A stretch of DNA of 64,000 nt. It comes from a bacterium. Lineage in GTDB: Bacteria; Patescibacteriota; Minisyncoccia; Minisyncoccales; GWA2-46-15. Location: positions 384,632 to 448,631 of the forward strand of contig JAUYAM010000002.1 of assembly GCA_030693425.1 (NCBI GenBank). Direction: 5' to 3'. The position numbers and the translations under genes were made by a program. Each line of letters begins with the position of its first letter. Positions within the stretch are counted from its first letter, which is position 1. Shown here piece by piece: positions 2,314 through 39,344 of this stretch. The notes beneath the pieces are model-generated. The model saw nothing but the letters and a program-made list of their open reading frames with translations, did not search any database and was not told the DNA's origin.

Positions 2314-2318
2314 TTTTT

Positions 2319-21215: not shown

Positions 21216-21260
21216 ATAAAAAATGTTGACTGCGGGCTGACTCGGTCTAGAACCTGCCCC
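21216..21260 (-). repeat. tRNA-trailer-like motif copy R6 with tRNA-3'-half-like extension
   Basis: Minus strand GGTTCTAGACCGAGTCAGCCCGCAGTCAACATTTTTTAT. Confidence 0.8.
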
Positions 21261-21271
21261 AATGTCTGTCG

Positions 21272-21288
21272 TTGACGACTGTCGTCAA
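21272..21288. repeat. Palindrome TTGACGACTGTCGTCAA (copy 2), inside a 35-nt insertion (21265-21299)
   Basis: The insertion is absent from the paralogous sequence at 29964-30020. Confidence 0.8.
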
Positions 21289-21395
21289 TTGTTATTATAG
21301 CGTATTTTAAGAGGTTTTTGGGCCTTGGCCAGTGTCTCGTTTGAGGTGTCTCGGTCCTCCTCCGCCAAGGCTTCGGAAGGATAAATCGGGGCGTT

Positions 21396-21441
21396 TATTC
21401 GAGAAATGAGTCACGGAAAAAGGTATTTTAGCGTGTCTCAT
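21396..21441 (-). repeat. ATGAGACAC hairpin family, copy A1 (overlaps mltG stop codon)
   Basis: Minus strand ATGAGACAC-N18-GTGACTCAT. Confidence 0.7.
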
Positions 21442-22400
21442 TTTAAGTATTCTTCGATGTTTTGCAGGTGCTCTTCGTAAGTTTTGGCAAGATGAATTTG
21501 TCCCTCGCTATCGTGCAAATAATAGAGATATTCGCTATCTTCCGAGTTGATCACCGCATTAATTGCCGCCAATCCCGGGTTGCAGATGGGCGAGGGCGGC
21601 CGTCCCTTGTGGATATAGGTATTATACGGCGAATCAAACTTATAATCCTCCGGTTTTATGGCCGGCCACCAATTTTCCGGATCTCCTAACGCATATTGCA
21701 CGGTTGCGTCTATTTGGAATGGCATGTCTTTTAGCCACCTGTTCCAGATTACTCCGGCGATAATCGGCATCTCCTCATCGTTGGCGGCTTCTCTCTGCAC
21801 TAACGAAGCTAAAACTATCAAAGTGTCGTTTCTTATATCTTTTTCTGCAGCTTTTTTAAAGAGATCGGCAGTCTTTTCATTGAATTGGCTTTCCATTCTC
21901 TTTGCGACATCCCCGCCTGTAAAATCCAAATCCAGAAGATAAGTATCCGGAAAACTGTAGCCCTCGCGAATATTCAAAAGAAATTCGGCTTTTGCCGTAT
22001 TGCTCCAGTTAAGCTTCTCCTGCAATTTTTCTGCGATTTCCGCCGCTCTTAATCCTTCGGGTATCGCTACCCATTTCTGATACGGATGGTTGATCAATAC
22101 CTCTGCCAACTGCCAAGCGTTCATGGCTTTGGAAACTATGTATCCGCCCGGCTCTATTTTTCCTTGCCACTCCTTTTTTCTTAGTACGTAATTAAATGCC
22201 CACTCGCTTCTGATATAGCCCTGGCTTTTAAGTTTCGGGGTAAGATCTGCTTCGGCGGTGGTTAGATTAATAACGATTCTTTCTTTCTCCGTTGTTTTTT
22301 GCGGCGCCGCAAACTGCCTTTGATAGACGAAAAAGGCGACACCGGATGCCGCCGCAATTATCGTTACAGCGATGGTTGCAATTATTTTATTTCTGCCCAT
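21438..22400 (-). CDS. mltG: Endolytic murein transglycosylase MltG (YceG-like)
   Basis: N-terminal TM; LASLVQREA and PPSPICNPG motifs. Confidence 0.85.
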   Translation of the reverse strand: MGRNKIIATIAVTIIAAASGVAFFVYQRQFAAPQKTTEKERIVINLTTAEADLTPKLKSQGYIRSEWAFNYVLRKKEWQGKIEPGGYIVSKAMNAWQLAEVLINHPYQKWVAIPEGLRAAEIAEKLQEKLNWSNTAKAEFLLNIREGYSFPDTYLLDLDFTGGDVAKRMESQFNEKTADLFKKAAEKDIRNDTLIVLASLVQREAANDEEMPIIAGVIWNRWLKDMPFQIDATVQYALGDPENWWPAIKPEDYKFDSPYNTYIHKGRPPSPICNPGLAAINAVINSEDSEYLYYLHDSEGQIHLAKTYEEHLQNIEEYLK

Positions 22401-22437
22401 GAAGAAATTAATCTGTTTTTCTTGATTTTAGCGCAAA

Positions 22438-22482
22438 ATGAGACAAATGAGACACGGAAGCGGGGTTTTGGTAGTGTCTCAT
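22438..22482 (-). repeat. ATGAGACAC hairpin family, copy A2
   Basis: Minus strand ATGAGACAC-N18-GTGTCTCAT-TTGTCTCATTTTGCGCTAAAAT. Confidence 0.8.
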
Positions 22483-22484
22483 TA

Positions 22485-23666
22485 TCACACAAGACTGTGC
22501 TTTTGAGCAAACTTATCTATCCTATCAAAAGCCTCGTGAATTAACTTGGCATCTGCGGCAAAGGACATCCGCAAATGGTTTTTGCCGGCCGGCCCCATGC
22601 TATCTCCGGGAATTGTAATCACCTTGGCTTCATCAACCAGCCTCTTGGCAAAATCAAGAGCTGGCATATCAAAACCGACTATTCTTGGGAAAGCATAATA
22701 TGCTCCATCGGGCCAGGAAAATGCAAACAGTTTGGGCAATCTTTCTAATCTCTCACAAATTGCCTGTCTTGATTCGGTAAACTTCGTTTTGAAATAACTG
22801 ATTGCTTCTTCGCCACGAGGATCAGATAGAGCGGCGATGGAGGCGACGATGGAAGGCGTTGATGGACTAATGCTGAAATAGGTATGGACGTCGTTGATCT
22901 TTGAGATAATCTCGGCGTTGGCATAAACATAGCCGATTCTCCAGCCGGTCATGGCAAACTCTTTGGAAAAGCTCTTGCAGACAATGAGGTTGTTTCTCAA
23001 TTCCGGAATCTGCAGCGGGCTGAATAATTCTTTGCCATAAGTTAAAAAGTCGTAGGCCTCGTCGAGAACAAGGATTAAATTGTTCTTCAAAATAATGTCT
23101 GACAACCTCCTAATTTCTGCCTCACTCAAAACCGTTCCGGTCGGGTTATTTGGATTGGTCAGAATGACCATTCTTGTCTTTGGGGTGATCGCTTTTTCCA
23201 GTCTTCCTAAATCGATGGACCAATTATTATTCTCGTCGTAGGAAACAAAGACCGGTTTGGCTTGGGCCAAACGAATCTGCGAAAGATGAAGAGGATAACT
23301 CGGATCAAAGTAAATAACTTCATCGTCTTTTTCCAAAAAAGCCATGATGGCTGAAAACAGTCCTCCGATTCCGCCCACGGTGAGATAAGTTTCTTCCAGT
23401 TTTGGCGCAAAACCATGTTTTCTCTCAACCTTTTTAATTATCAGTGTTTTCAATTCGTTTTCAATCTTAGGCAAAGAGTATTGGCCGATTGTCGGATCAG
23501 ACTTTGATCTCACGTGAAGATAATCATAAATAAACTGGGGTGTCGGAAAAAGCGGCGTCCCCTGGCCGAGAGAAATAACATCCGGATATTTTGCCGCATA
23601 TCGCATCATTGCGCCGATACCGGCATTGGGCACATTTTGCACTCGCTGAGTGAATTTATAGTCCAT
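22485..23666 (-). CDS. Class I/II PLP-dependent aminotransferase
   Basis: NPNNPTG and SFSKEFAMTGWRIGY (PLP lysine) motifs. Confidence 0.9.
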   Translation of the reverse strand: MDYKFTQRVQNVPNAGIGAMMRYAAKYPDVISLGQGTPLFPTPQFIYDYLHVRSKSDPTIGQYSLPKIENELKTLIIKKVERKHGFAPKLEETYLTVGGIGGLFSAIMAFLEKDDEVIYFDPSYPLHLSQIRLAQAKPVFVSYDENNNWSIDLGRLEKAITPKTRMVILTNPNNPTGTVLSEAEIRRLSDIILKNNLILVLDEAYDFLTYGKELFSPLQIPELRNNLIVCKSFSKEFAMTGWRIGYVYANAEIISKINDVHTYFSISPSTPSIVASIAALSDPRGEEAISYFKTKFTESRQAICERLERLPKLFAFSWPDGAYYAFPRIVGFDMPALDFAKRLVDEAKVITIPGDSMGPAGKNHLRMSFAADAKLIHEAFDRIDKFAQKHSLV

Positions 23667-23684
23667 GTTTAATTTTATAATATC

Positions 23685-24068
23685 TTAACCTTCTAAAACC
23701 GACTTTAGCTTCTCCAAGATTGCGATTTCAAATGGTTCTTCAATTTCCCCCTTATCAACCCATTCATAGTATTCAAGCTCTGTTATTGCATCATCTATTG
23801 TCTTATACGTATACCTTGCGTGATAGTTTCCATCTCTTGATGTCAATTCAAACATTTCGTTTTCCTTAAAACCAGTCATAACACATTCTGACCATTTACC
23901 GCTTCTGTTTTGATTTCTGTAAATAGTCCCCACTTTAACCGGCCACTCATTAGTTTCCTCCTTAACAAAAGAGTCTATCCAGAGCGGAGTATTGGCTGGA
24001 TTAAGCGGAAAGGCGAATGCTTCTTGAATCGGTTTTTTGATTTGAATAGCAAGCTTGTTCTCTTTCAT
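23685..24068 (-). CDS. SRPBCC/START-like small protein
   Basis: About 127 aa; pattern of a helix-grip fold family; weak. Confidence 0.4.
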
Positions 24069-24131
24069 ATTTATTCACTTTATCAAAAAAGCCTGCCTAC
24101 CGGTAGGCAGGCGCCTTTCTGGCGACTTTTT
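24066..24131 (-). terminator. Junction module copy 3: GCCTGCC palindrome terminator + leaderless -10
   Basis: Minus strand AAAGTCGCCAGAAAGGCGC-CTGCCTACCGGTAGGCAGGC-TTTTTTGATAAAGTGAATAAAT-ATG; 11-bp perfect stem at 24091-24112. Confidence 0.7.
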
Positions 24132-24223
24132 AAAATCAATACATCTCGGTCTCTCACGTTTCGAGGCGCCGAAAGCGACTCATAGCGAGTAGAATACTTG
24201 ATATGTCGGGTGTTCCGCCCGCT

Positions 24224-24315
24224 ATAAAAAACGCTGATGGCGCCATGTACCACGTGGGGTACACGGCAGCCATGAACCCTACGTGGTTCATGGCGGGCTG
24301 ACTCGGTCTAGAACC
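24224..24315 (-). repeat. tRNA-trailer-like motif copy R5, split by a 51-nt double-hairpin insertion
   Basis: GGTTCTAGACCGAGTCAGCCCG (24315-24294), insertion 24243-24293 (stem CCATGAACC/GGTTCATGG), then CCATCAGCGTTTTTTAT. Confidence 0.7.
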
Positions 24316-27300
24316 GATTCTCAGATAGATATTCTTTCCATTCTCGGATTTTTTCGACAAGTCTTAAAGCGAAGGTGGAGACATTTGACGTCAAACTCTT
24401 TATCGCCTTAAATTCGCTCTCGCCACTAGCTGGCGGAGGGGCTACCGGTAACGGAAGTGGAGGCGGCAGAAAGCCGGTTCTTTGTTCGTCGTGATGTATA
24501 GTGGGCCAGAACATCGTGTCGGGATTGTACGCAGCAGACAAATCCCAAACATACAAAGAACCTCTTATCTTTATGTCATTTTTTACGGTGTCAAAATCCC
24601 AGTCGGAACTGGCAATCAACTCCACTTTCTTATCTTTGTCAACGTCGGCAATGGTCGCTGACGCCTCGGCCCATTCCTCAATCCCTAAAGGAGTGCCTCT
24701 CATCAATTGAAAATCCGTATCGCGCCAGGCGTATAAACCTCCCCCGCCACCAGAAAACCATTCTCCGGCTGTAGCCAAAATATCCGATTTTCCGTTCCCG
24801 CTGACGTCACCCATGATTGTCGAACGCCAATTGCCAAAAGAAGTTGCCTGGGGCGAACCGGAAAAAAGCTTACCGTCGTGATGAAAAAGATATGTCATAT
24901 ATTTACTTTCCCCGTGCTCGTAACGGCTGATGCCGATTTCCAAGTCGTTGTCGCCGTCAAGGTCTCCAAGAGAAGGCGAACCAATGAAATTAAATCCCTT
25001 CATTTGCGGCCAGCCAGGCAAAAGGTTCCCGGTTTTGTCAAAGACATAGACTCCGCCAGAATCCGGAGATTCATCATAATAACCCCGCGCCGAAGCAATC
25101 ACTATCTCGCTTAAGCCGTCCCCGTTTAAATCGCTGACTGACGGGCCAGAGTTTATTATGAGGCCGTGGATAGTAACGGGCCAGCCCGACAGCAAGGTGC
25201 CGTCTCGGTTAAATATCCTGATCTCGCTATTGTTGAGACTATTTTTAGGATCAGCTACTACTATTTCCAAATCCGGGTCATCGTCAAAATTCCCCACTGC
25301 CGGACCCGGTCCGCCGACATAGTCATAATAATTCTTATCCGGCAAAAGCCACTGAGCGATAATCTTTCCATTGTAATCAAGTACTGTCATTTTTCTCCCG
25401 CGCCCTTCATCGGGCTTAATAACTATTTCTTGCAGGCCATCGCCATTTAAATCAGCTGTTAGCATATAAAATCTGCTGACTCTGGACATTGCCAAGGATA
25501 TGGGTTGCTGCAATGGTTGACCATTAGATCCAAGAATATAAAGCCAAGGAGAATCATATTCTCCATTATTCACAAGAATAACAATTTCCTTCGCGCCGTC
25601 GTTATTAATATCTCCTATAAGAGGGTTCTCCGCTGTAAAGCCCCCACTAGCGCCCACAACGCTGAATCCGAATGACCAAAGAAGAGCTCCGTCGTACTTA
25701 TAGACATATATCTTGGGCGGATTTCCGTTTTTTAGAACTACTATTTCCTGGAAACCGTCGCCGTTAATGTCGCTGACCGCCGGTTCCAAAAAACCTCCCC
25801 AGTAATAACAATTACCCCCGCACTGTTCTTCTGGCACTTCCTCCCAGTTCACTCTTTTAGGCCAGCCTTTTTTCAACATTTTATCTAAGTAAACTCGTAA
25901 CACTTCCTCTTCGGCACCGCCGCTATAACTCAAAACAGCCTTGAGGGAATATCCGCCGGTCGGCAAACTCGTGGTATTCCAAACTTGGCCCGCAATCCGA
26001 GTCCAGACGGAAGCACCCGGCTTTAAATAGCTCCAGGATAAAGAATAGGCTTCGCTGAGATACACTTGTGCCTTAAGCTTAATTGAATCCCCGCTCCTTA
26101 TCACATCGGAACTGAGAGGAAAGAGAATATCCCACTTATTAACCTCAAAATAGCCGTAATCAAGGAAACTTTGGCCAGATTTGTCTTTGGCCGCCAGTTT
26201 TAAAATATATTTTCCGTCGGGAATTAAGTTAAGATTAAGCACATAGGATATCTTGAAATTAGGGGGAATCGGCGCGGTTGCCAAAACAATGAATTTTGAC
26301 GGATCGTAAGGGACAAGAGGAGCGTAGGAAATAGTGTAATTTTGAAGGTTTCCACCCTTGGCAAGGCCGCTGATGTTAATCGTGCCCCTCTTTTTGGTGG
26401 AAATAGGATTCAGTTTGACAATCGGCGGATATTTAGATTGAACCGCCTTTAGAACGTCGATTCTGCCCAGTCCTTGTTCGACGGGATGCAACAAAATATC
26501 TAAAGCAGTATTTCTCAAGGCATATTTTATATACAAAGGTTTCCAGGTAGGATGTTTCTGTTTTATCAGAGCCGCGGCGCCGGCAACGTGCGGAGTGGCC
26601 ATTGAAGTGCCGCTGATGGCAATATGTTTAGAATCCAGGCACTCTGCTTCTGGCAACCAGTCGTCCCACTGGGCAGCGCAGATATCAACTCCGGGCGCGA
26701 CAATATCTGGCTTCATAATAGATTTATTTTCCCAAAATACCGGCCCTTGAGAACTAAAATAAGAGGTGCCGTCTTGCTTGTCTGCGGCGCCGACAGTAAT
26801 GGCTTGCTTGGCTGTGCCAGGAGAACCAATAGTCGCAAAACCGCCGCTATTGCCCGCTGCCACGGCTGCTACTACTCCGGCGCCTACTGCATTGTCCACT
26901 GCCCGGGAAAGAGGATCATCAGGATTTCCTTCGGAAGCGCCCAAGCTAAGATTAATGACGTCTAAATGGTCTGACAAATTTCCGTCTTGATTCGGGTCCA
27001 TTGCCATTTCTATGCCCGCAATAACCCAGTCAAAATAGCCCGAGCCAAACTCGTCAAGAACTTTGTAAGCGTAAAGATTGGCGTCAGGCGCCACTCCTTT
27101 TAAGGCGCCTTTGCCAGCGGCAATGGCAGCCACGTGAGTGCCGTGCCCCATGTCGTCCATGGGATCTGCGTCATTATTGACAAAGTCATAGCCGCCAAGA
27201 ACCTTGCATCTTGCCCCCAAGCAGCCCCCCAATTCCCTGTTGGCATAGTCAACGCCGGTGTCAATGATGCCGATTGTTACCCCTTGGCCAGTGATTGAAC

Positions 27301-28054
27301 GCCCTTGTTGGTCTTTAAGTTTCCAAACCTTGTCAGCTTTGATCAAGGGCACGGAATCATATAAAAAAGCTTTGACTTTGTAGTTGGGGGAAACCTTATA
27401 ACCCTTGTTTTCTATTTTTTTTACCTCTTCGCCTGAAAGCTGGTCAACGCTCACGCCGTTGATGGCAACAGCAAATTTGTTCTTGACGCTGGCTTTGGGC
27501 GCCAAGAACTTAATCACGGACTCTGCCTGAATCTGCTCTTTTTTAATGAGGGCTGACTGGACAGAAAGCAAAGCTCTGGTGTTTTTGTCTTCCGATCCGA
27601 TGATATCGTTTATCTGCTTTTGCAAGGACTCCTTTTCTTTTTCAGTGACAGCTCTGTCCAAAGACTCTTCAAGGGAAAAAGTTTTCAGCCCTACGGCCTC
27701 TTCCCGCTCTGCCTTGACGGCTGCCAAGGGCTTTTCCTTAAACTCAATGATGTAACCCTTAAATTCCTCTACTTGTATTTCATATTTTTCCGACAGGTCT
27801 TTGGACAAAAACAACTCGTCGCCCAAAACCATGTCTGGCTGGCCATAACCCAGTAATGTTTTTTGGCCGTCAGGGCCTTTTAAAAAGATCCGCGATACTT
27901 CTTCTTGACTAACGCCAGAAGAAGCAGCCTCGTCTTGACTCAAGGCAAAAAATTCTTTGCCGTCTCTGATAAACCCGGAAGCCGACGGAACAAAACCGGA
28001 AAGCAAGAGGAAAACCAGGGAGGCAAAAGCAATAGACTTTTTGAGGTTTGTCAT
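24308..28054 (-). CDS. Giant secreted subtilase (S8) fused to FG-GAP/VCBS-type beta-propeller repeats
   Basis: Signal peptide; catalytic IIDTGVDY / HGTHVAAIAAG / GTSMATPHVAGAAAL; at least 8 repeats of D.NGDG..EIV type. Confidence 0.9.
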   Translation of the reverse strand: MTNLKKSIAFASLVFLLLSGFVPSASGFIRDGKEFFALSQDEAASSGVSQEEVSRIFLKGPDGQKTLLGYGQPDMVLGDELFLSKDLSEKYEIQVEEFKGYIIEFKEKPLAAVKAEREEAVGLKTFSLEESLDRAVTEKEKESLQKQINDIIGSEDKNTRALLSVQSALIKKEQIQAESVIKFLAPKASVKNKFAVAINGVSVDQLSGEEVKKIENKGYKVSPNYKVKAFLYDSVPLIKADKVWKLKDQQGRSITGQGVTIGIIDTGVDYANRELGGCLGARCKVLGGYDFVNNDADPMDDMGHGTHVAAIAAGKGALKGVAPDANLYAYKVLDEFGSGYFDWVIAGIEMAMDPNQDGNLSDHLDVINLSLGASEGNPDDPLSRAVDNAVGAGVVAAVAAGNSGGFATIGSPGTAKQAITVGAADKQDGTSYFSSQGPVFWENKSIMKPDIVAPGVDICAAQWDDWLPEAECLDSKHIAISGTSMATPHVAGAAALIKQKHPTWKPLYIKYALRNTALDILLHPVEQGLGRIDVLKAVQSKYPPIVKLNPISTKKRGTINISGLAKGGNLQNYTISYAPLVPYDPSKFIVLATAPIPPNFKISYVLNLNLIPDGKYILKLAAKDKSGQSFLDYGYFEVNKWDILFPLSSDVIRSGDSIKLKAQVYLSEAYSLSWSYLKPGASVWTRIAGQVWNTTSLPTGGYSLKAVLSYSGGAEEEVLRVYLDKMLKKGWPKRVNWEEVPEEQCGGNCYYWGGFLEPAVSDINGDGFQEIVVLKNGNPPKIYVYKYDGALLWSFGFSVVGASGGFTAENPLIGDINNDGAKEIVILVNNGEYDSPWLYILGSNGQPLQQPISLAMSRVSRFYMLTADLNGDGLQEIVIKPDEGRGRKMTVLDYNGKIIAQWLLPDKNYYDYVGGPGPAVGNFDDDPDLEIVVADPKNSLNNSEIRIFNRDGTLLSGWPVTIHGLIINSGPSVSDLNGDGLSEIVIASARGYYDESPDSGGVYVFDKTGNLLPGWPQMKGFNFIGSPSLGDLDGDNDLEIGISRYEHGESKYMTYLFHHDGKLFSGSPQATSFGNWRSTIMGDVSGNGKSDILATAGEWFSGGGGGLYAWRDTDFQLMRGTPLGIEEWAEASATIADVDKDKKVELIASSDWDFDTVKNDIKIRGSLYVWDLSAAYNPDTMFWPTIHHDEQRTGFLPPPLPLPVAPPPASGESEFKAIKSLTSNVSTFALRLVEKIREWKEYLSENRF

Positions 28055-28150
28055 GTTTTTAAAAGGTTAATTTGTATTTACGGAGCGAAAACGCAGTTTT
28101 CTGCCCTTAGTTTATCTTAACCAATAGTACAAAAAATACAAGAAAAAACC

Positions 28151-32483: not shown

Positions 32484-32495
32484 ACATATTTTGGG

Positions 32496-32870
32496 GCGGT
32501 GTGTATTTGAAAATATCCGAACCGAACTGGCTGGGCCCCGCCTGCGTTGACTCGGCCTTCGTAGCCACTCTCGCCTCGCCAGAGCCTTCGGCGGAGCGCG
32601 GGTCGGCGAAGGAGGCAACTTCGGCGGGCAGGTCGGCGGGCGGCCCCGCAACTATCTCGCTTCGCTCGAAGTGCGGGGTAAAAATTCCCCCTAGCCCCCT
32701 GGAGTTTACCCCGCATAATCCCGAAGGGATTTGTGCGGGACCCGCCTCGCCTTGCCTGCCCGACCGAAGCAGTGCGTAGGCGGGAAGCGGAAGCGGAAAG
32801 AACGATTTCAAGTTTTTCGTTCCGCTTTTAGCGGAACTCCGAGCTTTGCTCGGTTTGGCGGCAAATTTCC
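32496..32870 (-). ncRNA. GC-rich hairpin-dense island Y (candidate structured RNA; function unknown)
   Basis: Visibly GC-rich vs flanks. 11-bp perfect stem 32672-32682/32705-32715; hairpins ATCCC-GAA-GGGAT, CCGAGC-TTT-GCTCGG, CCGC-TTTTA-GCGG; several CCCCGC/GCGGGG segments. Strand assignment tentative. Confidence 0.3.
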
Positions 32871-32875
32871 TATCT

Positions 32876-33007
32876 TTTATCTGCTATTAAAATAACAAAT
32901 TTACAATTTAATGTATATGGAGGATTTGCTGCTTCAAAATCCTCTATAACTTCTGATTCATACATTTGTGCTTGATAATTTCGAAAAAGGTTTTTTAGAA
33001 CCCTTTT
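32876..33007 (-). repeat. Perfect 132-bp duplicate of the methyltransferase gene 3' end (copy without the rest of the gene)
   Basis: Identical by eye to 35313-35444. Confidence 0.9.
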
Positions 33008-33010
33008 GTG

Positions 33011-33032
33011 GACGGGGGACGTTTCACTTTTA
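33011..33032. repeat. REP-like element, orientation a (GACGGGGGACGTTTCACTTTT)
   Basis: Reverse complement matches AAAAG(A/T)GAAACGTCCCC at 33738-33790. Confidence 0.75.
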
Positions 33033-33041
33033 AACAGAGTT

Positions 33042-33692
33042 TTAGTCATTTTTAATGTGTTGGCTTAATTTCCTTTCTATCTTTCTTTTCTCCATATATT
33101 TTTGACTATTGCTTCCCCATATCTCCTCACTATATGTTTTTTTAATTATCTGAGAGATAGTTAGTTTTTGATAGTTTATCTGCCTTTCTTTCTTGTCTTT
33201 TCCTAATCCTTGATAAAAGGAATCATCTGTTAAAAGTTCGTTTTCTTTTCCTTGGGCATAATAACCATAGCTTGAATAAGGATATTCTTGAGGTTTTTTT
33301 GTGATATTGGCTCTTACTGGATTTAATTCAATATATTTTCCACATTGAATAAAATATTCATCTTTTCCTACTGGCTTGTTTTTAAATCTGTTTTGCCAAA
33401 AGTGTCCTGTCCAGCCATACTTTTTCCTAAAATAATGATAATAGGAAAGATTTAGTTTTTTCATTAAAACAGAAAAATCTGTAGATTTATTGGTTTGGAT
33501 TAGAAGATGGACGTGATTTGGCATTAAACAATAATGATAAAGATCAAAAGGATGTTCTTTTTTATATTTTTTAATCAAGTTTAGAAAATACAAATAATCT
33601 TCTTTTTCTCTAAAGATTACATTTTTATTGTTTCCTCTTGTTATTATATGATAGCAAGATTGAAATAAAAGAAAACGAGGTAGCCTTGGCAT
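33042..33692 (-). CDS. REP-associated tyrosine transposase (RAYT; IS200/Y1 transposase-like)
   Basis: CYHIITRGNN...; HUH motif MPNHVHLLI; about 216 aa; flanked by inverted REP-like sequences. Confidence 0.85.
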   Translation of the reverse strand: MPRLPRFLLFQSCYHIITRGNNKNVIFREKEDYLYFLNLIKKYKKEHPFDLYHYCLMPNHVHLLIQTNKSTDFSVLMKKLNLSYYHYFRKKYGWTGHFWQNRFKNKPVGKDEYFIQCGKYIELNPVRANITKKPQEYPYSSYGYYAQGKENELLTDDSFYQGLGKDKKERQINYQKLTISQIIKKTYSEEIWGSNSQKYMEKRKIERKLSQHIKND

Positions 33693-33737
33693 TGTTTAAT
33701 TCTAACATGGATTAACTAAAATGACTAACTTCTTATT

Positions 33738-33802
33738 CAAAAGAGAAACGTCCCCTTTTAACGCCAAAAGAGAAACGTCCCCTTTTAACGTCCCCTTTTA
33801 AC
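33738..33802. repeat. Tandem REP-like repeats, orientation b (2.5 x about 26 nt)
   Basis: CAAAAGAGAAACGTCCCCTTTTAACG twice, then TCCCCTTTTAAC. Confidence 0.85.
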
Positions 33803-33870
33803 TTTTAACCTTCGGGTGAGGGGTTGACCATGGAGAATAGATTAAATATTTGATGAGTCTCGGCCTCTCG

Positions 33871-33889
33871 ATAAAAAATGCTGACTATG
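33871..33889 (-). repeat. tRNA-trailer-like motif copy R2 (5' part diverged)
   Basis: Minus strand CATAGTCAGCATTTTTTATCGAGAGGCCGA. Confidence 0.7.
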
Positions 33890-33924
33890 AAACGTACAAA
33901 TTGCTACGCAATTTTACGTTCCAG

Positions 33925-33973
33925 CCACGTTGAACGTAAGATTTTGCAAAGCAAAATCGACGTTCTTACGTGG
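33925..33973. repeat. 49-nt imperfect palindrome rich in ACGT boxes (REP-related cluster)
   Basis: CCACGT-TGAACGTAAGATTTTGC-AAA-GCAAAATCGACGTTCTTACGTGG. Confidence 0.65.
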
Positions 33974-34025
33974 CGGAGAACTATTTACAGTGTTATAACC
34001 TATTTTACGTTGAGAACTGTGTGTA

Positions 34026-35090
34026 TTAATCGGTGATCCAATATATATCTACAGGACTATTTTGTTTATAATTATAGTTACTTAAGATTCTTGCCCTGTT
34101 TCCCGTAGCCATATCAAGCAATTCAACCGTAATTCGGTACGGACCTCCACAATCTATATCCCATGGCAGACAACTCGTATCTCCTAATAAGAGATATTTA
34201 CCATCTGGAGATGCTGCAAGCGCATCGATACCAAATTTTTGTTTCTTCGGATATGTTTGTATTATTTCCTTTTTGTTTATGTTATAAATTCGAATCACAT
34301 CCCGTCCTGATTGAGTATTCCAATTTGGAATATAGATATACGCAATTGTTTCGCTATTAAGCACCTGGAATCTATCTACATAGTCTAATCCTTGCAATCG
34401 AAGAATTTCTTTTGAAGAAACATTCAACTTATACAAAAATCCGTAAATTCTAATAAGCACATTGTTTTCATCAAGCCAATCTAAAACACTTCTGTGTTTC
34501 CAATGATAGAAAGAAAAATCATCACACTCGCTCTTAGGACGACCACCGATTTTACAAATTTCCTGAATGTTGGATGCGAGATCTACGTGAGTTGTAGTGT
34601 CATCGTGCGTGTTAATAACCTCTATGTTTTGTTGGGATAAAAGTGCAATCTGTTCTCCATTTTTAGAAAAACTTATGACATAGCCGGGAACATTTTTTTG
34701 AGTATCTTCATACCTTAAAAGAAATGTCTTACTGATGTTGCCTTGCGAGTCGCTTACAATGAGTTTCGGATCTGGCAATACACCCTTATAGCCCAAGACT
34801 TTTCTGTCTGCAGTCACTATAGCCTGATGCTGACCATCTCTGGAAAATATTCGTTCGGATACGACAAACCTATTCTCATCTATTGTTGGTTGTGTTAATG
34901 CGCTCTTGATAACTGACTGTTTAGCGATATCCAGCCATCCATCTATAAGATAAATCTTGGAATTTATGCCAGTATTGAACTGTCTGATTGTGTGCTGTTG
35001 CAGTATTTTATTACCAATGGAAAAAAATGTTACGATCAGAATAACTATCAATGCATACCGTAGAGTTTTTGAGGTCAATGCAGTTTTCAC
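34026..35090 (-). CDS. N-terminally anchored beta-propeller-like protein (TolB/PD40-like, weak)
   Basis: GTG start behind TATAAT; TM; SPDGKYLLLGD-type repeat. Confidence 0.45.
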   Translation of the reverse strand: MKTALTSKTLRYALIVILIVTFFSIGNKILQQHTIRQFNTGINSKIYLIDGWLDIAKQSVIKSALTQPTIDENRFVVSERIFSRDGQHQAIVTADRKVLGYKGVLPDPKLIVSDSQGNISKTFLLRYEDTQKNVPGYVISFSKNGEQIALLSQQNIEVINTHDDTTTHVDLASNIQEICKIGGRPKSECDDFSFYHWKHRSVLDWLDENNVLIRIYGFLYKLNVSSKEILRLQGLDYVDRFQVLNSETIAYIYIPNWNTQSGRDVIRIYNINKKEIIQTYPKKQKFGIDALAASPDGKYLLLGDTSCLPWDIDCGGPYRITVELLDMATGNRARILSNYNYKQNSPVDIYWITD

Positions 35091-35130
35091 GCCATTAAAT
35101 CATACCATATTATAGAATAGCGATCAAAGT

Positions 35131-35305
35131 GTGGTGTGCGTTCGAAAAAATCTTTACCCTGTACTTCTACTTCGGGGGACGATTTTCCACCTTCACTAAA
35201 GTTTCGGCGGACAGGCAAGTCTTTCCCTGCCCCGTACCGAATTCATTCTGGTGCGGGGTTTGCTTTGCCCTCCGTAGTTTTTACAAAGGATGGGGCGGCA
35301 AATTC
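35131..35305 (-). ncRNA. GC-rich island X, shorter relative of island Y (candidate structured RNA)
   Basis: Shares both ends with Y (GTGTG..TTCGAAAAAATC and GGCGGCAAATT). 9-bp stem CCCCGTACC/GGTGCGGGG; contains REP-like CGGGGGACGATTTTCCAC. Confidence 0.3.
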
Positions 35306-35306
35306 T

Positions 35307-35987
35307 TTATTCTTTATCTGCTATTAAAATAACAAATTTACAATTTAATGTATATGGAGGATTTGCTGCTTCAAAATCCTCTATAACTTCTGATTCATAC
35401 ATTTGTGCTTGATAATTTCGAAAAAGGTTTTTTAGAACCCTTTTTGCATCATTTAAAGTATAAAGGGGTTCTTTGCCAAATATAATTAATTTTCCATTTA
35501 GAGAAGTTCTTTTTATGTCTGTTGCAAAATCAATTATTACTCTTCCGTTTGGTTTAAGAATCCTATCAATTTCAAAAATTATTTGTCGTAAAACTTCTTT
35601 TGGAAAAAGATGTAAGGTACCCGTGCAAAAAATGCCATCAAATAGACCGTCTTCGAATGGAAATTTCTTGGTCATATCGAAAGCTTTCGTATTTAATTTT
35701 TTCCTATATTCCTTTGGAGTATTGTGCCACAATTTACTAAGGGCACTTTCATCAATATCGGTAACGACAACAAAATCGGCTTTTTTTAATAGATTCAAAT
35801 TATAGCGACCATCGCCAGCGGCGAGATTTAACCATTTGCCATGAATTTCAATCTTCCCCAAGAGTTCCATGGTATCTTTATCGCCAGTTCCCCAAATTGA
35901 AGTTTTAGCCGTTTCAAAATAATTAACTCCTTCGGTAAAGATATACTTATCTTCTTTTGGCTTATGGGGTCTTATTATTTTTTCCAT
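35307..35987 (-). CDS. Class I SAM-dependent methyltransferase
   Basis: Motif I WLNLAAGDGRY; post-I VVTDID. Confidence 0.8.
   Translation of the reverse strand: MEKIIRPHKPKEDKYIFTEGVNYFETAKTSIWGTGDKDTMELLGKIEIHGKWLNLAAGDGRYNLNLLKKADFVVVTDIDESALSKLWHNTPKEYRKKLNTKAFDMTKKFPFEDGLFDGIFCTGTLHLFPKEVLRQIIFEIDRILKPNGRVIIDFATDIKRTSLNGKLIIFGKEPLYTLNDAKRVLKNLFRNYQAQMYESEVIEDFEAANPPYTLNCKFVILIADKE
35313..35444 (-). repeat. 132-bp segment (3' end of the methyltransferase CDS) duplicated perfectly at 32876-33007
   Basis: Direct repeats bracket the RAYT/beta-propeller segment. Confidence 0.9.
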
Positions 35988-36009
35988 AAAGGTTTTTTAC
36001 AGAGGTTTT

Positions 36010-36063
36010 TACAGAGGTCAGACCTCTGTAAATTTTCAATTGTGGGAGGTCGGACCTCCCACA
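36010..36063. repeat. Two adjacent perfect hairpins sharing a GAGGTC-N-GACCTC core
   Basis: TACAGAGGTCAGACCTCTGTA (36010-36030) and TGTGGGAGGTCGGACCTCCCACA (36041-36063). Confidence 0.8.
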
Positions 36064-36086
36064 TTTTTATCTCGGTCGGGACTATT

Positions 36087-36132
36087 TTAAGCAAAAATGA
36101 GACAAATGAGACACAGAAACAGGATTTTTGGT
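36087..36132 (-). repeat. ATGAGACAC hairpin family, copy A3
   Basis: Minus strand ATGAGACAT-N18-GTGTCTCAT-TTGTCTCATTTTTGCTTAAAAT; close match to A2. Confidence 0.8.
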
Positions 36133-36186
36133 AATGTCTCATCATCTCGAAACAAGTTGCGCCGTGCTAAACCTCACATATATGGT

Positions 36187-36987
36187 TTAGCCCTCAATCA
36201 ATAAAGCCATTACCTTCTTCAAAACCTTTTTGAATTTTAAGGTATGCATCCAACGAGTAGGCGGTACGCCTACTAAAAGTATTGTGTTCGTATAATTAGC
36301 GAATAATTTTCCTTGCAAGGCCCTTTTTAAATTATATGGCCTATTGTCCTTCTCCAATAGCCCGTTGTACGCATCTTTCTGGAACGCGATAATACTTCCT
36401 TTTTGTTTGATAAATCGTTCTATGACTTTTCGCACCCGTTGTCTCTCTGCGCTGGCTAATTGGTCAAATGCTTTTTTGCCGAACAAACGCCGCAGCCCCA
36501 TGACCCCTGACCATTTTGGATCGCTGGCAGGACTAGGAAACGTAAAAAATACTTCCATCCCCACAACAAAAAGAGAGTCGTATTTTAGATTGAAAAAATT
36601 AGATTTGAATAAATCATTATCATCGCCTCCCCGTGGAGATATATTAATAATTCCAAGTTCCCTCATGACTTTCCAGAACCGATGTTCTCTGCCATTTCCC
36701 TCGAAAGCAAAATATATATCGGCCAATACGCTATGAGGAGCGGGATTGCCGAATAAAAATAAGATTTTGGGTTTATGGTCAGATAATTTTGGAATCCACG
36801 ATTTGTGCAAATAAACCAGTTTGTCTTGTTTCCTTTCTATAACTTTTCCCAAAAAGCGATCTGCCTTAAAAAACTCGTTATAACGATTCCAGAATTTCTT
36901 CAAGTCATCTTTTTGGTATATCTGCGACAAATCAATCTCGCATACAAATTGCCCCCTAGAAGTGTTTTTATAACGAAAAAAGTTCAT
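36187..36987 (-). CDS. Hypothetical protein, uracil-DNA-glycosylase-superfamily-like (weak)
   Basis: LFLFGNPAPHS (motif A-like) and FTFPSPAS (HPSP-like motif B with F for H). Confidence 0.35.
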   Translation of the reverse strand: MNFFRYKNTSRGQFVCEIDLSQIYQKDDLKKFWNRYNEFFKADRFLGKVIERKQDKLVYLHKSWIPKLSDHKPKILFLFGNPAPHSVLADIYFAFEGNGREHRFWKVMRELGIINISPRGGDDNDLFKSNFFNLKYDSLFVVGMEVFFTFPSPASDPKWSGVMGLRRLFGKKAFDQLASAERQRVRKVIERFIKQKGSIIAFQKDAYNGLLEKDNRPYNLKRALQGKLFANYTNTILLVGVPPTRWMHTLKFKKVLKKVMALLIEG

Positions 36988-37034
36988 GAAAAAATCTCAT
37001 CTAGATCGATTTTAAACTTTTCTGAAGACAGCTC

Positions 37035-37514
37035 TCAGAAAGTTTTTATTCCTTCCATTCTCTCGCCCAGCGTTCTATCGGGAATATATACCAGCGCATC
37101 CACGCCTTTGATTTCGATCATTTCGTAATCCTTTTTAAGTATTAACGTAAAATTACCGCTACTCCGCAAGTATTTTTCTTTAAACTGCTGGTAATCCTTG
37201 ATTTTAAAATCCGGGGCGCCCCTTTGCGGCCTCGTTGCGTCTGGTTTCCTGATTTTTATCAGCGATAAAATTCCCGCTGGCGTTTTTATCGGTTCCTTCA
37301 ATAGAAATGTTCTGCCTGTCCTAATAGTCTCTTTATCCACTTCCTCGCCTATGCTCTCAGCGGCAAGCTCCAAATCCTTGTACTCGTTTTCGTCTTTGGA
37401 AAAGATTGCGACGTAATCAATAACCGCTTCCTTTTCATCGGTATTGTTCTTAATAGCAGACAAACCCTGTTCAACTAAATAACACACAATTTTTTCTAAT
37501 TCGCTTTTGTTCAT
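37035..37514 (-). CDS. Hypothetical protein
   Basis: 159-aa ORF directly behind junction module copy 5; no motif recognised. Confidence 0.5.
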   Translation of the reverse strand: MNKSELEKIVCYLVEQGLSAIKNNTDEKEAVIDYVAIFSKDENEYKDLELAAESIGEEVDKETIRTGRTFLLKEPIKTPAGILSLIKIRKPDATRPQRGAPDFKIKDYQQFKEKYLRSSGNFTLILKKDYEMIEIKGVDALVYIPDRTLGERMEGIKTF

Positions 37515-37557
37515 ATATTCATTTTATCAAAAAAGCGCCTTTCTGGCGACTTTAAAA
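37512..37557 (-). promoter_or_regulatory. Junction module copy 5 (terminator hairpin + extended -10, leaderless)
   Basis: Minus strand AAAGTCGCCAGAAAGGCGCTTTTTTGATAAAATGAATAT-ATG. Confidence 0.65.
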
Positions 37558-37670
37558 TTATAGCACCTGCTAAAAGAAGGCAGCGTATCAGACAAACGCG
37601 AATTACTGGCGAATTTACGGAGTAGGTTGAATTACAAGGATAAAAAAATTACCCTGATTGAGGAATAAGG

Positions 37671-37708
37671 AAAACAGAAAGAGCGATATAAATCGCTCTT
37701 TCTGTTTT
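37671..37708 (-). terminator. Strong intrinsic (bidirectional-looking) terminator
   Basis: ACAGAAAGAGCGAT-loop-ATCGCTCTTTCTGT, flanked by an A-run and a T-run. Confidence 0.8.
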
Positions 37709-37765
37709 AATCTTTTATCAAAGCAGTCGGGTCGCCACTCGCTCACGGCTAATCAGACCGCGCCG

Positions 37766-37785
37766 ATAAAAAAATGTTGTCTGCG
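37766..37785 (-). repeat. tRNA-trailer-like motif copy R1
   Basis: Minus strand CAGGTTCGCAGACAACATTTTTTTATCGGCG, starting 18 nt after the S8 peptidase stop. Confidence 0.8.
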
Positions 37786-37802
37786 AACCTGGTAACGGTT
37801 AG

Positions 37803-39146
37803 TTAGGGAGTTGGATAAAGGAGGGCGTTATAAACATTAATTCGGCCGTAACCAAAGTAGTTATCTTGGCCCAGAGTTCCTAAATCACTGGCCGTGGCTT
37901 CAATAATATTTCTTACCGCATTTTTATCGCGAGTAGCATCTTGAGCGAAAAGCAATCCAGCCAAACCAGCAACTTGAGGAGCAGCCATCGAAGTGCCTGA
38001 ACCAACATCATAATGGCGAGCACGACCATTTACGGTTCCAATATAGAATTTATAGCTGGGGAAGGTAGAAAAAATATTCTCTCCAGGAGCCGCCACATCT
38101 ACTTGAGGACCTACGCTGCTAAAGCTGGCGATATCATCCTTATAATTAGTAGCCGAAACTGCGATGACGTTTTCATAGGCAGCAGGATAGATCACTGCGC
38201 CGCCATTGTTATTTCCAGCGGCGGCGACTATCAGTACTCCTTTCCCCCAAGCATAATTGACTGCATCTCTTATAGTCTGAGAATCACCGCTACCTAAACT
38301 TAAATTGATTACTTTAGCCCCGTTATCTACCGCATATCTAATTCCCTTGGCTTCATCGGAGGTAAAACCTATTCCCGAATCGCTTAAAACTTTAACCACC
38401 ATAATTTTGATATTATCGGGAAAAGCAACTCCAGCTATCCCTTTGCCATTATTAGTAACGGCAGCGGCAATTCCTGAAACATGAGTGCCATGGCCGTATC
38501 CGTCGTGAGGCTTATTATTTCTTTTAGCAAAATTCCAACCCCAAGTATCATCAATAAAACCATTCCCATCGTCATCTTTTTTATTGCCGGCAATTTCAAG
38601 TTCATTTATCCAGATTTTACTTTTTAAATCTAGGTGAGTTTCATCAATGCCTGAATCAACAATGGCAATAACTGTAGTAGCCCAATTATAGTTAGAAAAT
38701 TCACTCCAAGCTTCATCCCAATCAACATCAGCATCATTAGTACCAGCTCCTATTAATTTACTTGAATTAATTGGTGAATCTGGATTTCCTGAACCCTTAT
38801 AAATCGTTTGAGCAATATTATTTAATGCCCACTGATTAGTATAAGCAGTGTCATTTGAACCTAAAGGATAAACGTAATAATCTGGTTCAACATAGACCAC
38901 ATCGGGTCTTGTTTGATATTCTTTAACTTTCTCCATAACCTTTCCTTCAGGTACCGCAATCACTCTGAAAGGTTCTTTGTCTGCCTTAAATTTAACAATC
39001 ACTCTATCTGGAGCATACTTAGCTTGGTTATCGTTATTCGCTTTGCCGGTTGAAAAATCAGAAAACGCCATTATGTTAACAGTAAGAACCAAGCTGATTA
39101 TTATTACCAGTGAGAATAATGTGATAAAAAGTTTTTTCCTAATCAT
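37803..39146 (-). CDS. Secreted S8 subtilisin-family serine peptidase
   Basis: Signal/TM; AIVDSGID, HGTHVSGIAAA, GTSMAAPQVAGLAGLL. Confidence 0.9.
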   Translation of the reverse strand: MIRKKLFITLFSLVIIISLVLTVNIMAFSDFSTGKANNDNQAKYAPDRVIVKFKADKEPFRVIAVPEGKVMEKVKEYQTRPDVVYVEPDYYVYPLGSNDTAYTNQWALNNIAQTIYKGSGNPDSPINSSKLIGAGTNDADVDWDEAWSEFSNYNWATTVIAIVDSGIDETHLDLKSKIWINELEIAGNKKDDDGNGFIDDTWGWNFAKRNNKPHDGYGHGTHVSGIAAAVTNNGKGIAGVAFPDNIKIMVVKVLSDSGIGFTSDEAKGIRYAVDNGAKVINLSLGSGDSQTIRDAVNYAWGKGVLIVAAAGNNNGGAVIYPAAYENVIAVSATNYKDDIASFSSVGPQVDVAAPGENIFSTFPSYKFYIGTVNGRARHYDVGSGTSMAAPQVAGLAGLLFAQDATRDKNAVRNIIEATASDLGTLGQDNYFGYGRINVYNALLYPTP

Positions 39147-39324
39147 ATTTAATTAAAGAGTTAAATTTTAAATTTTTCGACATTTTGGTTTACCTATTTT
39201 AAAGATAAATCAATCTATGCCGACTGTCAAGCCAAAATAAAAACTCGTCTATGCGCTGTCTGTCCCGAACAAAATTCGAACCACTCGGGTCGCTGACCAC
39301 TCGCGATCACTCGGGTCATGCCGA

Positions 39325-39344
39325 TAAAAAGTTGTCAATGCGGA
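39325..39344 (-). repeat. tRNA-trailer motif copy R0 (the actual 3' trailer of tRNA-Ser)
   Basis: Minus strand ..CCTTCCG-CATTGACAACTTTTTATCGGC. Confidence 0.8.

Follow-up and report, generated by a model that had tools for sequence, protein, structure and literature searches.

A tRNA-Ser-anchored island in a Patescibacteria genome with a conserved boundary motif that may mark serially inserted modules

Why does the sequence that follows a tRNA gene recur among unrelated genes downstream of it? This question is raised by a 64,000-nt stretch of a Minisyncoccales genome (phylum Patescibacteriota; GenBank assembly GCA_030693425.1, contig JAUYAM010000002.1, positions 384,632 to 448,631), referred to here as the window. 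An earlier note on this stretch had described copies of the tRNA-Ser(GGA) 3' trailer that divide an 18-kb gene array into cassette-like modules. The repeated motif consists of box 1 (CAGTCAACATTTTTTATCGAG) and, after it, box 2 (GACCGAGAnnCCTC), and the array is the larger part of a 22.5-kb island at the 3' end of tRNA-Ser(GGA). Comparison with other genomes reveals a precise junction, a patchily distributed motif, pairs of occupied and empty sites, units in which box 1 and a partner element, E2, enclose cargo, and relatives in which the island is absent. The explanation we favour, and hold to be somewhat probable, is that modules with box 1 as their conserved left end were inserted one after another, all in the same orientation, and so formed the array as an island anchored at tRNA-Ser.

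A repeated motif on the minus strand

The repeated motif between 21.2 and 39.3 kb on the minus strand is recovered by both consensus and profile searches; five copies are significant and two are degenerate. A 22-mer consensus with at most three mismatches matches at 21214-21235, 28324-28345 and 31716-31737, all on the minus strand, where shuffled sequences are expected to give none. An nhmmer profile of box 1, built from ~76 copies that include the window's own 33887 and 31734 copies, finds five copies, which again share the minus strand and span 21.2-37.8 kb (31739-31711, E = 7e-10; 21236-21216 and 33886-33865, each 6e-6; and, more weakly, 28347-28326, 1e-4, and 37785-37769, 0.16). The two further copies, 24242-24224 and the tRNA-Ser trailer itself, are degenerate and are backed by their context and by intermediates in other genomes. 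Box 1 was not found in the other ~46 kb of the window, nor after tRNA-Asn or tRNA-Leu. The spacing from upstream stop codons agrees with the earlier description (18, 137, 132, 96 and 66 nt, and 203 nt for MltG). An intrinsic terminator hairpin lies ~70 nt beyond the 37785 copy, and a canonical TTGACA..TATTAT promoter follows the distal copy (21216..21235).

Two parts of the earlier description need revision. The motif had been regarded as derived from the tRNA-Ser(GGA) trailer; it is not, and the trailer (CATTGACAACTTTTTATCGG) is the most divergent box 1 copy in the window; it is tied to the family through an intermediate, CAGTCAGCATTTTTTATCGGCATGACCCGA, in locus L100 (loci from other genomes bear the prefix L), where a ATCGGCATGACCCGA variant of box 1 also follows a tRNA-Ser. 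The site 29964-30009, listed as a degenerate relative of the motif, is instead a weak copy of E2, the element that precedes the motif elsewhere.

Box 1 has no Rfam match in either gathering or E-value mode across the window and 24 other loci, in which only genuine tRNAs were detected, and boxes 1 and 2 together show no palindrome or structure signal (fold z -1.24). Searches of the literature found no paper that contains the box 1 sequence, and nothing relevant on integrons or tRNA islands in the Candidate Phyla Radiation (CPR).

Patchy distribution of box 1 across the Patescibacteria

Box 1 also occurs outside this array and this genome, contrary to what the window by itself might suggest. A one-genome-per-species scan with CCGCAGYCARCATTTTTTAT gives 24 loci, 19 of them in CPR metagenome-assembled genomes, with one copy each, and a metagenome scan that left the upstream bases unconstrained gives 81 box 1 loci, from CPR; overall, exact copies occur in ~100 CPR/Patescibacteria loci. 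The three bases before box 1 are CCG in 49 of 61 unique contexts. Box 1 directly follows an intact tRNA in 29 of the 61 (tRNA-Trp 14, tRNA-Ser 13, tRNA-Met 1, tRNA-Asp 1), and there the two Cs close the acceptor stem and the G is the discriminator. The tRNAs that carry box 1 have no encoded CCA, and box 1 follows none of the 49 tRNAs with other specificities that these loci contain. After box 2 there is often an A-rich stretch and then an intrinsic terminator 54-90 nt downstream.

The orthologous tRNA-Ser(GGA) loci were reached through homologues of the neighbouring M48 peptidase, irrespective of the motif, and box 1 is absent from this tRNA in all three lineages obtained (L116-118, L119 and L120/121). 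In L116-118 the tRNA reads G/CCACGAATT (the slash marks a junction) and the next gene begins 24 nt on; in L120/121 the tRNA is followed by a 190-nt insert, which includes 17 nt duplicated from the tRNA, and then directly by the backbone genes. Most bystander tRNA-Ser genes in motif-selected loci also lack box 1. The one-genome-per-species scan never found more than one exact copy per genome, and the copies lie beside different tRNAs in different species. A perfect 20-mer of box 1 recurs across orders while flanks are ~70% identical. This 20-mer occurs in different orders and beside different tRNAs, never more than once in a genome, and close relatives lack it; such a combination fits DNA that spreads horizontally better than a functional trailer passed on by descent.

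Insertions at the junction between tRNA and box 1

Related genomes differ by inserts of 35 nt to 4.5 kb exactly at the G/box 1 junction. Box 1 directly follows tRNA-Ser(tga) in L099 and L101, and in L057 a 1.64-kb element lies exactly between the two, with flanks that are 98% identical. This element starts with CCA and a MUG113/T5orf172 homing-type gene with a homing-endonuclease repeat, ends with another recurring element, F1, and has a left end related to boxes 1 and 2. Similarly, the tRNA-Trp-G/box 1 arrangement of L098 and L075 is interrupted in L052 by 4.54 kb in which a 77-aa GIY-YIG gene comes first and E2 last, and L041 has a 107-nt insert and a 17-nt tRNA duplication at the same place. 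In several genomes, insertions have come between box 1 and essential tRNAs. Three features point to a site-specific cut beside a tRNA-like end: the junction is precise to a single base in five tRNA species, its orientation is fixed, and the right ends regenerate ...CCG/. Serial site-specific insertion had been one of the readings first proposed for the array; inserts that start exactly between discriminator and motif, together with orthologous loci without the array, support it.

A separate case is L020 (2802-5698), where a 2.9-kb insert lies between tRNA-Ser(cga) and a displaced 20-nt tRNA 3' fragment with box 1. The insert encodes a 342-aa reverse transcriptase (RVT_1) and no integrase, and an MNT/HEPN toxin-antitoxin pair and two E2 left halves are found downstream.

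Box 1 and E2 enclose variable cargo

E2 is 87-97 nt long and contains two conserved blocks, GACCGAGACACCTC ... GTTCTAGACCGAGACACACCG, the second of which is its 3' end; the blocks are direct and not inverted repeats. Box 1 is followed by E2 on the same strand in 13 loci, at a spacing of 0.1-4.3 kb. Three of these pairs are cargo-free, with the two elements 96-142 nt apart (L024, L025, L104), nine are 0.58-1.3 kb apart and one is 4.3 kb apart. Eight of the nine mid-size units hold a single forward open reading frame (ORF) or two, from families unrelated to each other (HIT, methyltransferase and pilin-like among them); in the ninth, L009, no ORF reaches 50 aa. Every genuine E2 is on the same strand as box 1. 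The pilin-like cargo proteins are 33% identical while their box 1 copies are identical. Where E2 is not followed by box 1, the next bases are CCA in 5 of 11 copies, as expected if a unit inserted between G73 and an encoded CCA. E2/box 1 joints (L015, L052, L071, L087 and, in the window, 21236 and 24294) appear to correspond to tandem units. The suggestion that the motif is a cassette boundary is supported: in other genomes, motif and E2 bracket varied cargo.

The nature of E2 was considered from two sides. RNAalifold on 12 copies predicts 0 pairs, and E2 as a structured RNA was dropped for want of a consensus structure. Global alignment with all tRNA types gives z ~1, with Ser, Trp and Leu ranking highest and not significant, and there is no match to the tRNA covariance model; E2 as a decayed tRNA-Ser was likewise dropped. 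Next to MltG, the 3' flank contains repeated GAGACAC / GTGTCTC (window 21330-21440; also 10963-11090 of L107, a relative without E2 or box 1), and this heptamer is the core of the direct repeats in E2 and box 2. Part of E2 may therefore have arisen from a native array of binding sites, or imitate one.

Elements that end in CCG before box 1

Besides tRNAs, four recurring elements precede box 1, and all end in CCG: duplicated tRNA 3' ends, REPIN-like doublets, F1 and E2. The duplicated tRNA 3' ends, of 12-20 nt, are found at a distance of 40-210 nt or 2.9 kb from the genuine tRNA (L002, L021, L013, L041, L103, L020); L120 also has a tRNA duplication. The smaller inserts at the tRNA/box 1 junction are REPINs and 100-200-nt elements with such duplications. 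The REPIN-like doublets, with the layout hp1-CTG-hp2-CG, are found in L018, L038 and L076 and at 24243-24293 and 33890-33971 of the window. The layout of the former is that of L076, and the hairpin type of the latter also lies between tRNA and box 1 in L018 and L038. These 51-nt and 82-nt inserts beside box 1 are REPIN-like (z -5.7 and -6.5) but are separate elements.

F1 starts AATTTGCCGCC ... GAAAAACTTGAAATCG, is strongly structured and has a GC content of 61% versus ~45% for the genome. Pieces of it are 91-98% identical in L100, L042 and L055, contigs otherwise unmatched to the window. It has no Rfam match and could be a structured RNA or a mobile-element end. The window's F1 (32498..32870) is followed by CCCCAAAAT and the HAD gene in place of box 1.

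The segments upstream of the motif had been described as decayed tRNA halves. All they share with tRNA is the pattern GTTC.A..CC...CCG; from 20.5 to 40 kb the Rfam tRNA model has no hit at E<=5 apart from the genuine tRNA, and most of the segments are defined, CCG-ending elements (E2, F1, REPIN hairpins). The TAG stop of the subtilase does lie within one of them, in GTTCTAGACC. The 51-nt insertion before the 24242 copy is also real, and folds as one long hairpin (z -5.7).

A 22.5-kb island absent from relatives

The backbone order UvrA-GroES/EL-LemA-M48-DUF5671-tRNA-Ser ... HisPhos ... Ppx ... DnaG-RpoD-tRNA-Asn is kept in L116, L120 and L041, and its part upstream of the anchor, GroEL-LemA-M48-DUF5671-tRNA-Ser, in L041 and L116-L121. 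What follows the orthologous tRNA-Ser(GGA) before the backbone resumes amounts to 22.5 kb in the window, 24 nt in L116 and ~2 kb in L041. Its location at a tRNA 3' end and its presence or absence between relatives from that very point are those of a tRNA island. L041 has the order tRNA, small insert, box 1, one gene, half E2 and AbiE, and hence the window's distal box 1 (21235) positionally equals the only copy in L041. The 18 kb that drew attention initially are exactly the stretch between tRNA-Ser and this distal copy. In two relatives MltG (81-83% identity) has other neighbours, with neither box 1 nor E2 beside it. The tRNA-proximal 9.4 kb have a GC content of 35-39%, versus 45-46% for the backbone, and the distal modules are backbone-like. 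The weak E2 at 29964..30022 lies after the 211-aa gene, where GC shifts from ~36% to ~45%. The features and the modules they delimit are listed in Table 1.

Table 1. Features of the tRNA-Ser(GGA) island and proposed modules, ordered from the tRNA outwards
Feature	Position	Strand	Sequence, content or boundaries	Evidence
Variable island	16801..39339	-	tRNA-Ser to first conserved backbone genes (195 aa / HisPhos, 15678-16800)	Synteny with L116, L041, L120; GC
tRNA-Ser(GGA), island anchor	39340..39425	-	Discriminator G at 39341	ARAGORN; Rfam 52.8 bits; sequence
Divergent box 1/box 2 variant straight after discriminator	39308..39340	-	CATTGACAACTTTTTATCGGCATGACCCGAGTG	Sequence
Box 1 copy	37763..37785	-	CGCAGACAACATTTTTTTATCGG; 18 nt past S8 peptidase stop	nhmmer E 0.16
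151-nt direct repeat, copy A	35294..35444	-		Repeat search
REPIN-like double hairpin	33890..33971	-	Directly 5' of 33889 copy	DNA fold -24.7 kcal/mol, z -6.5
Box 1 and box 2 copy	33852..33889	-	TAGTCAGCATTTTTTATCGAG AGGCCGAGACTCATC	nhmmer E 6e-6
RAYT-type Y1 (IS200-like) transposase gene	33042..33692	-	~195 nt downstream of 33889 copy	Pfam Y1_Tnp 2.4e-18
151-nt direct repeat, copy B	32857..33007	-	Duplicated methyltransferase 3' end and F1 start	Repeat search 97%; L045 alignment
F1	32498..32870	-	Ends ...GGTTCGGATATTTTCAAATACACACCG	nhmmer 1.7e-9, 1.4e-6; fold z -4.0; GC 61%
Best box 1 and box 2 copy	31699..31737	-	CCG CAGTCAGCATTTTTTATCGAG AGACCGACTTACCTC; 132 nt past HAD stop	nhmmer E 7e-10
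Weak partial E2	29964..30022	-	CCTTTAAAATACGCC ATTGGGGCAGGCTTTGAGTCGAGCCAGCCC; no box 1 after	Repeat 77%; pattern match; below E2-profile threshold
F1-type 3' end fused to box 1 copy	28326..28374	-	GGATTCGGATTTTTTCAAATACGCACCG (F1-type), CAGCCAACATTTTTTAT (box 1)	Box 1 E 1e-4; F1 E 1.3e-3; 93% match to L028
E2 3' end	24294..24321	-	GGTTCTAGACCGAGTCAGCCCG; holds TAG stop of 1248-aa subtilase/FG-GAP gene	nhmmer E 3e-5
51-nt REPIN (inverted REP doublet)	24243..24293	-	Exactly at CCG/box 1 junction	Long hairpin -17.2 kcal/mol, z -5.7
Degenerate box 1 copy	24224..24242	-	CGCCATCAGCGTTTTTTAT	3/15 mismatches; expected context, after 51-nt insertion
Full E2 after MltG	21236..21357	-	GACCGAGACACCTCAAACGAGACAC ... 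CTTAAAATACGCT, 36-nt hairpin insert, then GGTTCTAGACCGAGTCAGCCCG	nhmmer 1.7e-8, 6e-5
Distal box 1 copy	21216..21235	-	CCGCAGTCAACATTTTTTAT	Consensus and nhmmer; position equals single box 1 of L041
Module 1			Left: variant box 1; S8 peptidase; right: box 1 (37785)	
Module 2			Left: box 1 (37785); 159 aa, 266 aa, methyltransferase, split by module 3; right: F1 (32870-32498), then /CCCC	
Module 3, inside module 2			151-nt direct repeat each side; 2.3-kb insertion with beta-propeller, REPIN/box 1 (33889), RAYT	
Module 4			Left: F1/CCCC; HAD; right: ...CCCCG/box 1 (31737)	
Module 5			Left: box 1 (31737); PT-HINT, 211 aa; right: weak E2 (about 29964)	
Module 6			Left: weak E2; GH-like; right: F1-type end/box 1 (28345)	
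Module 7			Left: box 1 (28345); subtilase/FG-GAP; right: E2 end/REPIN/degenerate box 1 (24242)	
Module 8			Left: degenerate box 1 (24242); 127 aa, aminotransferase, MltG; right: E2/box 1 (21235)	

The 2286 nt between the 151-nt repeats, with the beta-propeller gene, a REPIN, box 1 and the RAYT gene, are an insertion relative to L045, which has an uninterrupted methyltransferase-F1 arrangement at 86% DNA identity and matches the window nowhere else. L106 (Logan SRR13727538), an independent assembly of the same organism, is identical to the window and ends at 39315, 25 nt past tRNA-Ser; the closest M48 homologues are mostly on short contigs. This assembly break and the short M48 contigs suggest population heterogeneity or repeats at the tRNA-Ser junction.

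Several other features of the region were recorded. Two paralogous genes to which no function is assigned, 30056-30691 (211 aa) and 19581-20315 (244 aa), encode proteins that are 90% identical and share a 300-nt DNA repeat of 88% identity; one lies within the array and the other just past its distal end. The hairpin motif GTCGCCAGAAAGGCGC occurs on the minus strand at 18571-18601, 24102-24134, 28188-28220 and 37526-37558, ~7-135 nt upstream of the starts at 18564, 24068, 28054 and 37514, and its relatives in other loci are terminator hairpins with T-runs after them. The low-GC part of the island encodes a 255-aa protein (30856-31623) with a pretoxin-HINT domain and no recognisable toxin domain following, which may be a polymorphic-toxin fragment or cassette, as far as its domains tell. 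Outside the island, another REP-like doublet, made up of GTTGCTTAACCCGGTTAAGCAAC twice, is found at 47114-47209, in the gap between uvrA and the PGA_cap gene at which gene orientation switches.

A model of serial insertion and its candidate enzymes

Under the favoured explanation, modules would have been inserted again and again at a single site, just behind the discriminator G73 and regardless of what came next, and newer modules would have pushed older ones away from the tRNA, which gives the insertion order that we infer. Boxes 1 and 2 would form the left end of one widespread CPR/Patescibacteria module family, and the right ends would be E2, F1 or duplicated tRNA 3' fragments, all with a tRNA-3'-like ...CCG. 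Each module would then regenerate the ...CCG/ target, and tandem junctions would read ...CCG/CAGTCAAC.... Box 1 and E2 may serve as recombination or transposition end sites for a protein supplied in trans. Genes close by suggest three kinds of candidate enzyme: GIY-YIG homing-type nucleases, the RAYT Y1 transposase and large serine recombinases. Alternatively, the shared ends may recombine with one another through short homology.

The first of these candidates is suggested by position: both complete inserts for which an empty site is available for comparison, L057 (MUG113/T5orf172) and L052 (77 aa), begin with a GIY-YIG-type gene. Small GIY-YIG or T5orf172-type nuclease genes directly adjoin tRNA genes in several CPR loci, these two inserts among them (L052 580-813, L057 2342-3121, L089 1377-1685 and L113 2985-3164). 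The RAYT gene of the array was found in none of ~120 other loci and was dropped as a general partner of box 1; it may explain the REPINs.

The third candidate is represented in the window by a single large serine recombinase gene, of 537 aa (2319-3932, plus strand), which converges on tRNA-Asn (3918-3992, minus strand), its last codons overlapping the tRNA 3' end. Recombinase genes also converge on a tRNA 3' end in L116 (16240-17979), L013 (tRNA-Ala) and L028 (tRNA-Ser). The region 1-3917 of the window has a GC content of 38.8% and is probably a second integrated element, at tRNA-Asn. Nearer to the motif, a large serine recombinase gene ends ~60 nt from box 1 in L064, L093 and L110. L008 has the same boxes 1-3 as L110 without the recombinase prophage, and 70%-identical homologues lie at other sites without box 1; on these grounds box 1 is probably not a P' half-site of the L064/L110 recombinase. 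The L064-type recombinase (445 aa) is ~70% identical across several CPR classes, with >8000 hits at E<=1e-40, and in L110-L115 it lies at the edge of prophage-like regions (ParB-methylase, terminase) whose sites differ among genomes.

Some observations weigh against serial insertion of box 1-ended modules. The note had seen a RAYT and no integrase in the array, and Pfam searches of all ORFs of at least 100 aa between 16.8 and 40.8 kb likewise reveal no tyrosine or serine recombinase, Y1_Tnp alone. All-against-all clustering of 644 neighbouring ORFs reveals no recurrent family beside box 1, the largest cluster covering 9 of ~95 loci. The crossover of the L064/L110 recombinase probably lies beyond boxes 1-3, because L008 has these boxes without the recombinase. 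By inspection there is no dyad symmetry between the E2 end and box 1 of the kind seen in att sites. Box 1 and E2 are absent from IMG/VR, and the E2-box 1 query found no match in phage and plasmid collections. The units themselves are also uneven: most tRNA/box 1 loci show no E2 downstream within the sequence examined, and these would be solo left ends. The distal modules of the window have backbone-like GC and housekeeping genes (aminotransferase, MltG), and may be native DNA trapped between inserted ends. The beta-propeller and RAYT insertion is bounded by the 151-nt duplication and not by the motif, and looks like a single-crossover insertion through homology. Finally, loci L001-L105 were picked by exact motif match, which biases them towards its presence, and the source genome is represented by its 64-kb window only.

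Weighing the rival explanations

In a serious rival, box 1/2 and E2/F1 would be portable homology arms, short shared sequences through which cassettes are swapped by RecA-type recombination after DNA uptake, as in the minimal mobile elements of Neisseria. It accounts for the lack of an associated recombinase, for a methyltransferase-F1 end common to otherwise unrelated modules and for ends kept far better than cargo (identical box 1 copies beside pilin-like proteins at 33%), and the 151-nt duplication around one array insertion is what a single crossover predicts and shows that such recombination has occurred here. However, an arm of 21-40 nt is near the lower limit for efficient homologous recombination, the first arrival of box 1 beside five different tRNAs is left unexplained, and a left junction one exact base past several tRNA species, with REPINs at the same base, indicates a site-specific cut. 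We consider recombination through homology arms unlikely as the general explanation. A slightly smaller chance is given to the idea that boxes 1-3 are a native, functional trailer of tRNA-Ser and tRNA-Trp, such as the source of a small RNA or a site bound by a protein, which adjoins a tRNA integration hot spot and whose extra copies come from elements that copy the target region. Box 1 lies between tRNA and intrinsic terminators and so would be transcribed; in the L057/L099 and L052/L098 pairs it was already in place as the distal flank; the L057 element has its box 1/2-related left end; and boxes 1-3 are present in both L008 and L110, without and with the prophage. A native trailer is yet hard to reconcile with the absence of box 1 at three of three unbiased tRNA-Ser(GGA) orthologues and most bystander tRNA-Ser genes, with at most one exact copy per genome at tRNAs that differ by species, and with a 20/20 match across orders between ~70% flanks, which vertical descent would hardly produce. 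It also leaves the box 1 ... E2 units unexplained, the cargo-free ones of 96-142 nt included, and the trailer has neither a conserved structure nor an Rfam family.

Two further explanations place the motif at the level of transcription or assembly. The note had raised an RNA processing or punctuation signal, in which a tRNA-like 3' structure and box 1 would direct RNase Z or RNase P to cut a polycistronic transcript. The copies do lie on the gene strand, past stop codons and after CCG-ending sequence like a tRNA 3' end, and CCA often follows E2. This signal is nevertheless missing from the other ~45 genes of the window and from the three unbiased orthologues, it is parted from tRNAs by insertions, the upstream segments are not tRNA-like by covariance model, E2 has no conserved fold (0 pairs in 12 sequences), box 1 has no conserved structure or Rfam match, and the modules have terminators and promoters of their own. 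Insertions at the junction are events in DNA that it does not explain, and we regard it as very improbable. We find it hardly credible that the motif is a general-purpose terminator or promoter, or that the array is an artefact in which assembly fused strain variants at a repeat. A T-run in the motif, the break of one independent assembly at the tRNA and the short contigs of the closest M48 homologues would suit this view. No hairpin precedes the T-run, and the motif was rejected as an intrinsic terminator because real ones follow it: in 17 or more of 73 loci separate terminators end 54-90 nt further on, and inspection by eye shows others. The reverse strand contains TTGACT and an A-tract, with no consistent -10 in any context; separate, canonical TTGACA/TATAAT promoters lie elsewhere, downstream, and the motif was rejected as a promoter too. 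An artefact is contradicted by the same protein sequences on record in a 453-kb NCBI contig and by an architecture repeated in many independent assemblies.

Comparison with known mobile systems

The closest known concept to serial insertion at tRNA-Ser appears to be the tandem tRNA-anchored island, as exemplified by tycheposons. In these, the repeated boundary is a partial tRNA of ~40 nt, and a gene for a tyrosine or large serine recombinase is present in most elements (Hackl et al., bioRxiv 10.1101/2020.12.28.424599). The likeness includes anchoring at a tRNA 3' end, serial integration at the same site that displaces older elements deeper, scattered degenerate remnants, integrase-less cargo modules and content that varies greatly between close relatives. 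Unlike tycheposons, the boundary here is a non-tRNA 21-40-mer past the tRNA, with tRNA identity limited to CCG, the array has no integrase and the modules have a defined right end (E2). No direct repeat of the tRNA 3' segment was found at the distal island boundary in the window, where only CCG is common to the tRNA, while duplications of 12-20 nt do occur in L002, L021, L041, L013, L103, L020 and L120. A repeated boundary outside the tRNA, a defined right-end element and the lack of an integrase are what sets it apart from tandem tRNA islands.

Integrons (attI/attC, IntI) also combine co-oriented, mostly single-ORF cassettes of unrelated function with a 60-140-nt 3' site, stacking at one platform and a short conserved sequence at each boundary. 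In contrast to them, the platform here is a tRNA 3' end with no IntI-type tyrosine recombinase in the window array and no recurrent neighbour family in ~95 loci, and E2 is neither an imperfect palindrome nor conserved in fold, as attC is, its blocks being direct and not inverted repeats. REP/REPIN-RAYT systems resemble the array in their strand specificity, in the RAYT gene it contains and in the two REPIN-like doublets exactly at CCG/box 1, as in other genomes, but box 1 is not palindromic, is not clustered around the RAYT gene, and occurs in other loci without one. IS200/IS605 elements offer a likeness by logic only: insertion 3' of a short target in fixed orientation and without target duplication, asymmetric ends, and a right end that would close with target-like sequence (CCG). 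Unlike them, the modules have no TnpA/TnpB, and box 1 and E2 no conserved subterminal hairpins. Free-standing GIY-YIG homing endonuclease genes are known beside tRNAs, for example the seg genes of phage T4, and both complete comparator-backed inserts (L057, L052) start next to the tRNA with such a gene; the window array has none, and homing predicts neither defined ends nor tandem stacking.

It is conceivable, though a tentative proposal that we consider doubtful, that the CPR have an integron-like but mechanistically distinct cassette system, with the G73/ end of tRNA-Ser or tRNA-Trp as platform, box 1/2 (21-40 nt) as left end and E2 (87-97 nt), whose end is a tRNA mimic, as right end, mobilised in trans and transferred horizontally across orders. 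If so, the window would hold the largest array seen so far.

Significance for the Patescibacteria

CPR bacteria have tiny genomes in which few classical mobile elements have been described, and how they gain and exchange genes is poorly understood. The finding accounts for assemblies of these organisms that break at this tRNA. A conserved, searchable boundary pair would be a direct handle on the flexible gene pool of the CPR and on the points at which cassettes enter, in every case a single base of tRNA-Ser or tRNA-Trp genes, and a target for finding the enzyme. If the ends serve a new recombination system with a tRNA-mimicking end, this would be a new class beside integrons and tycheposons.

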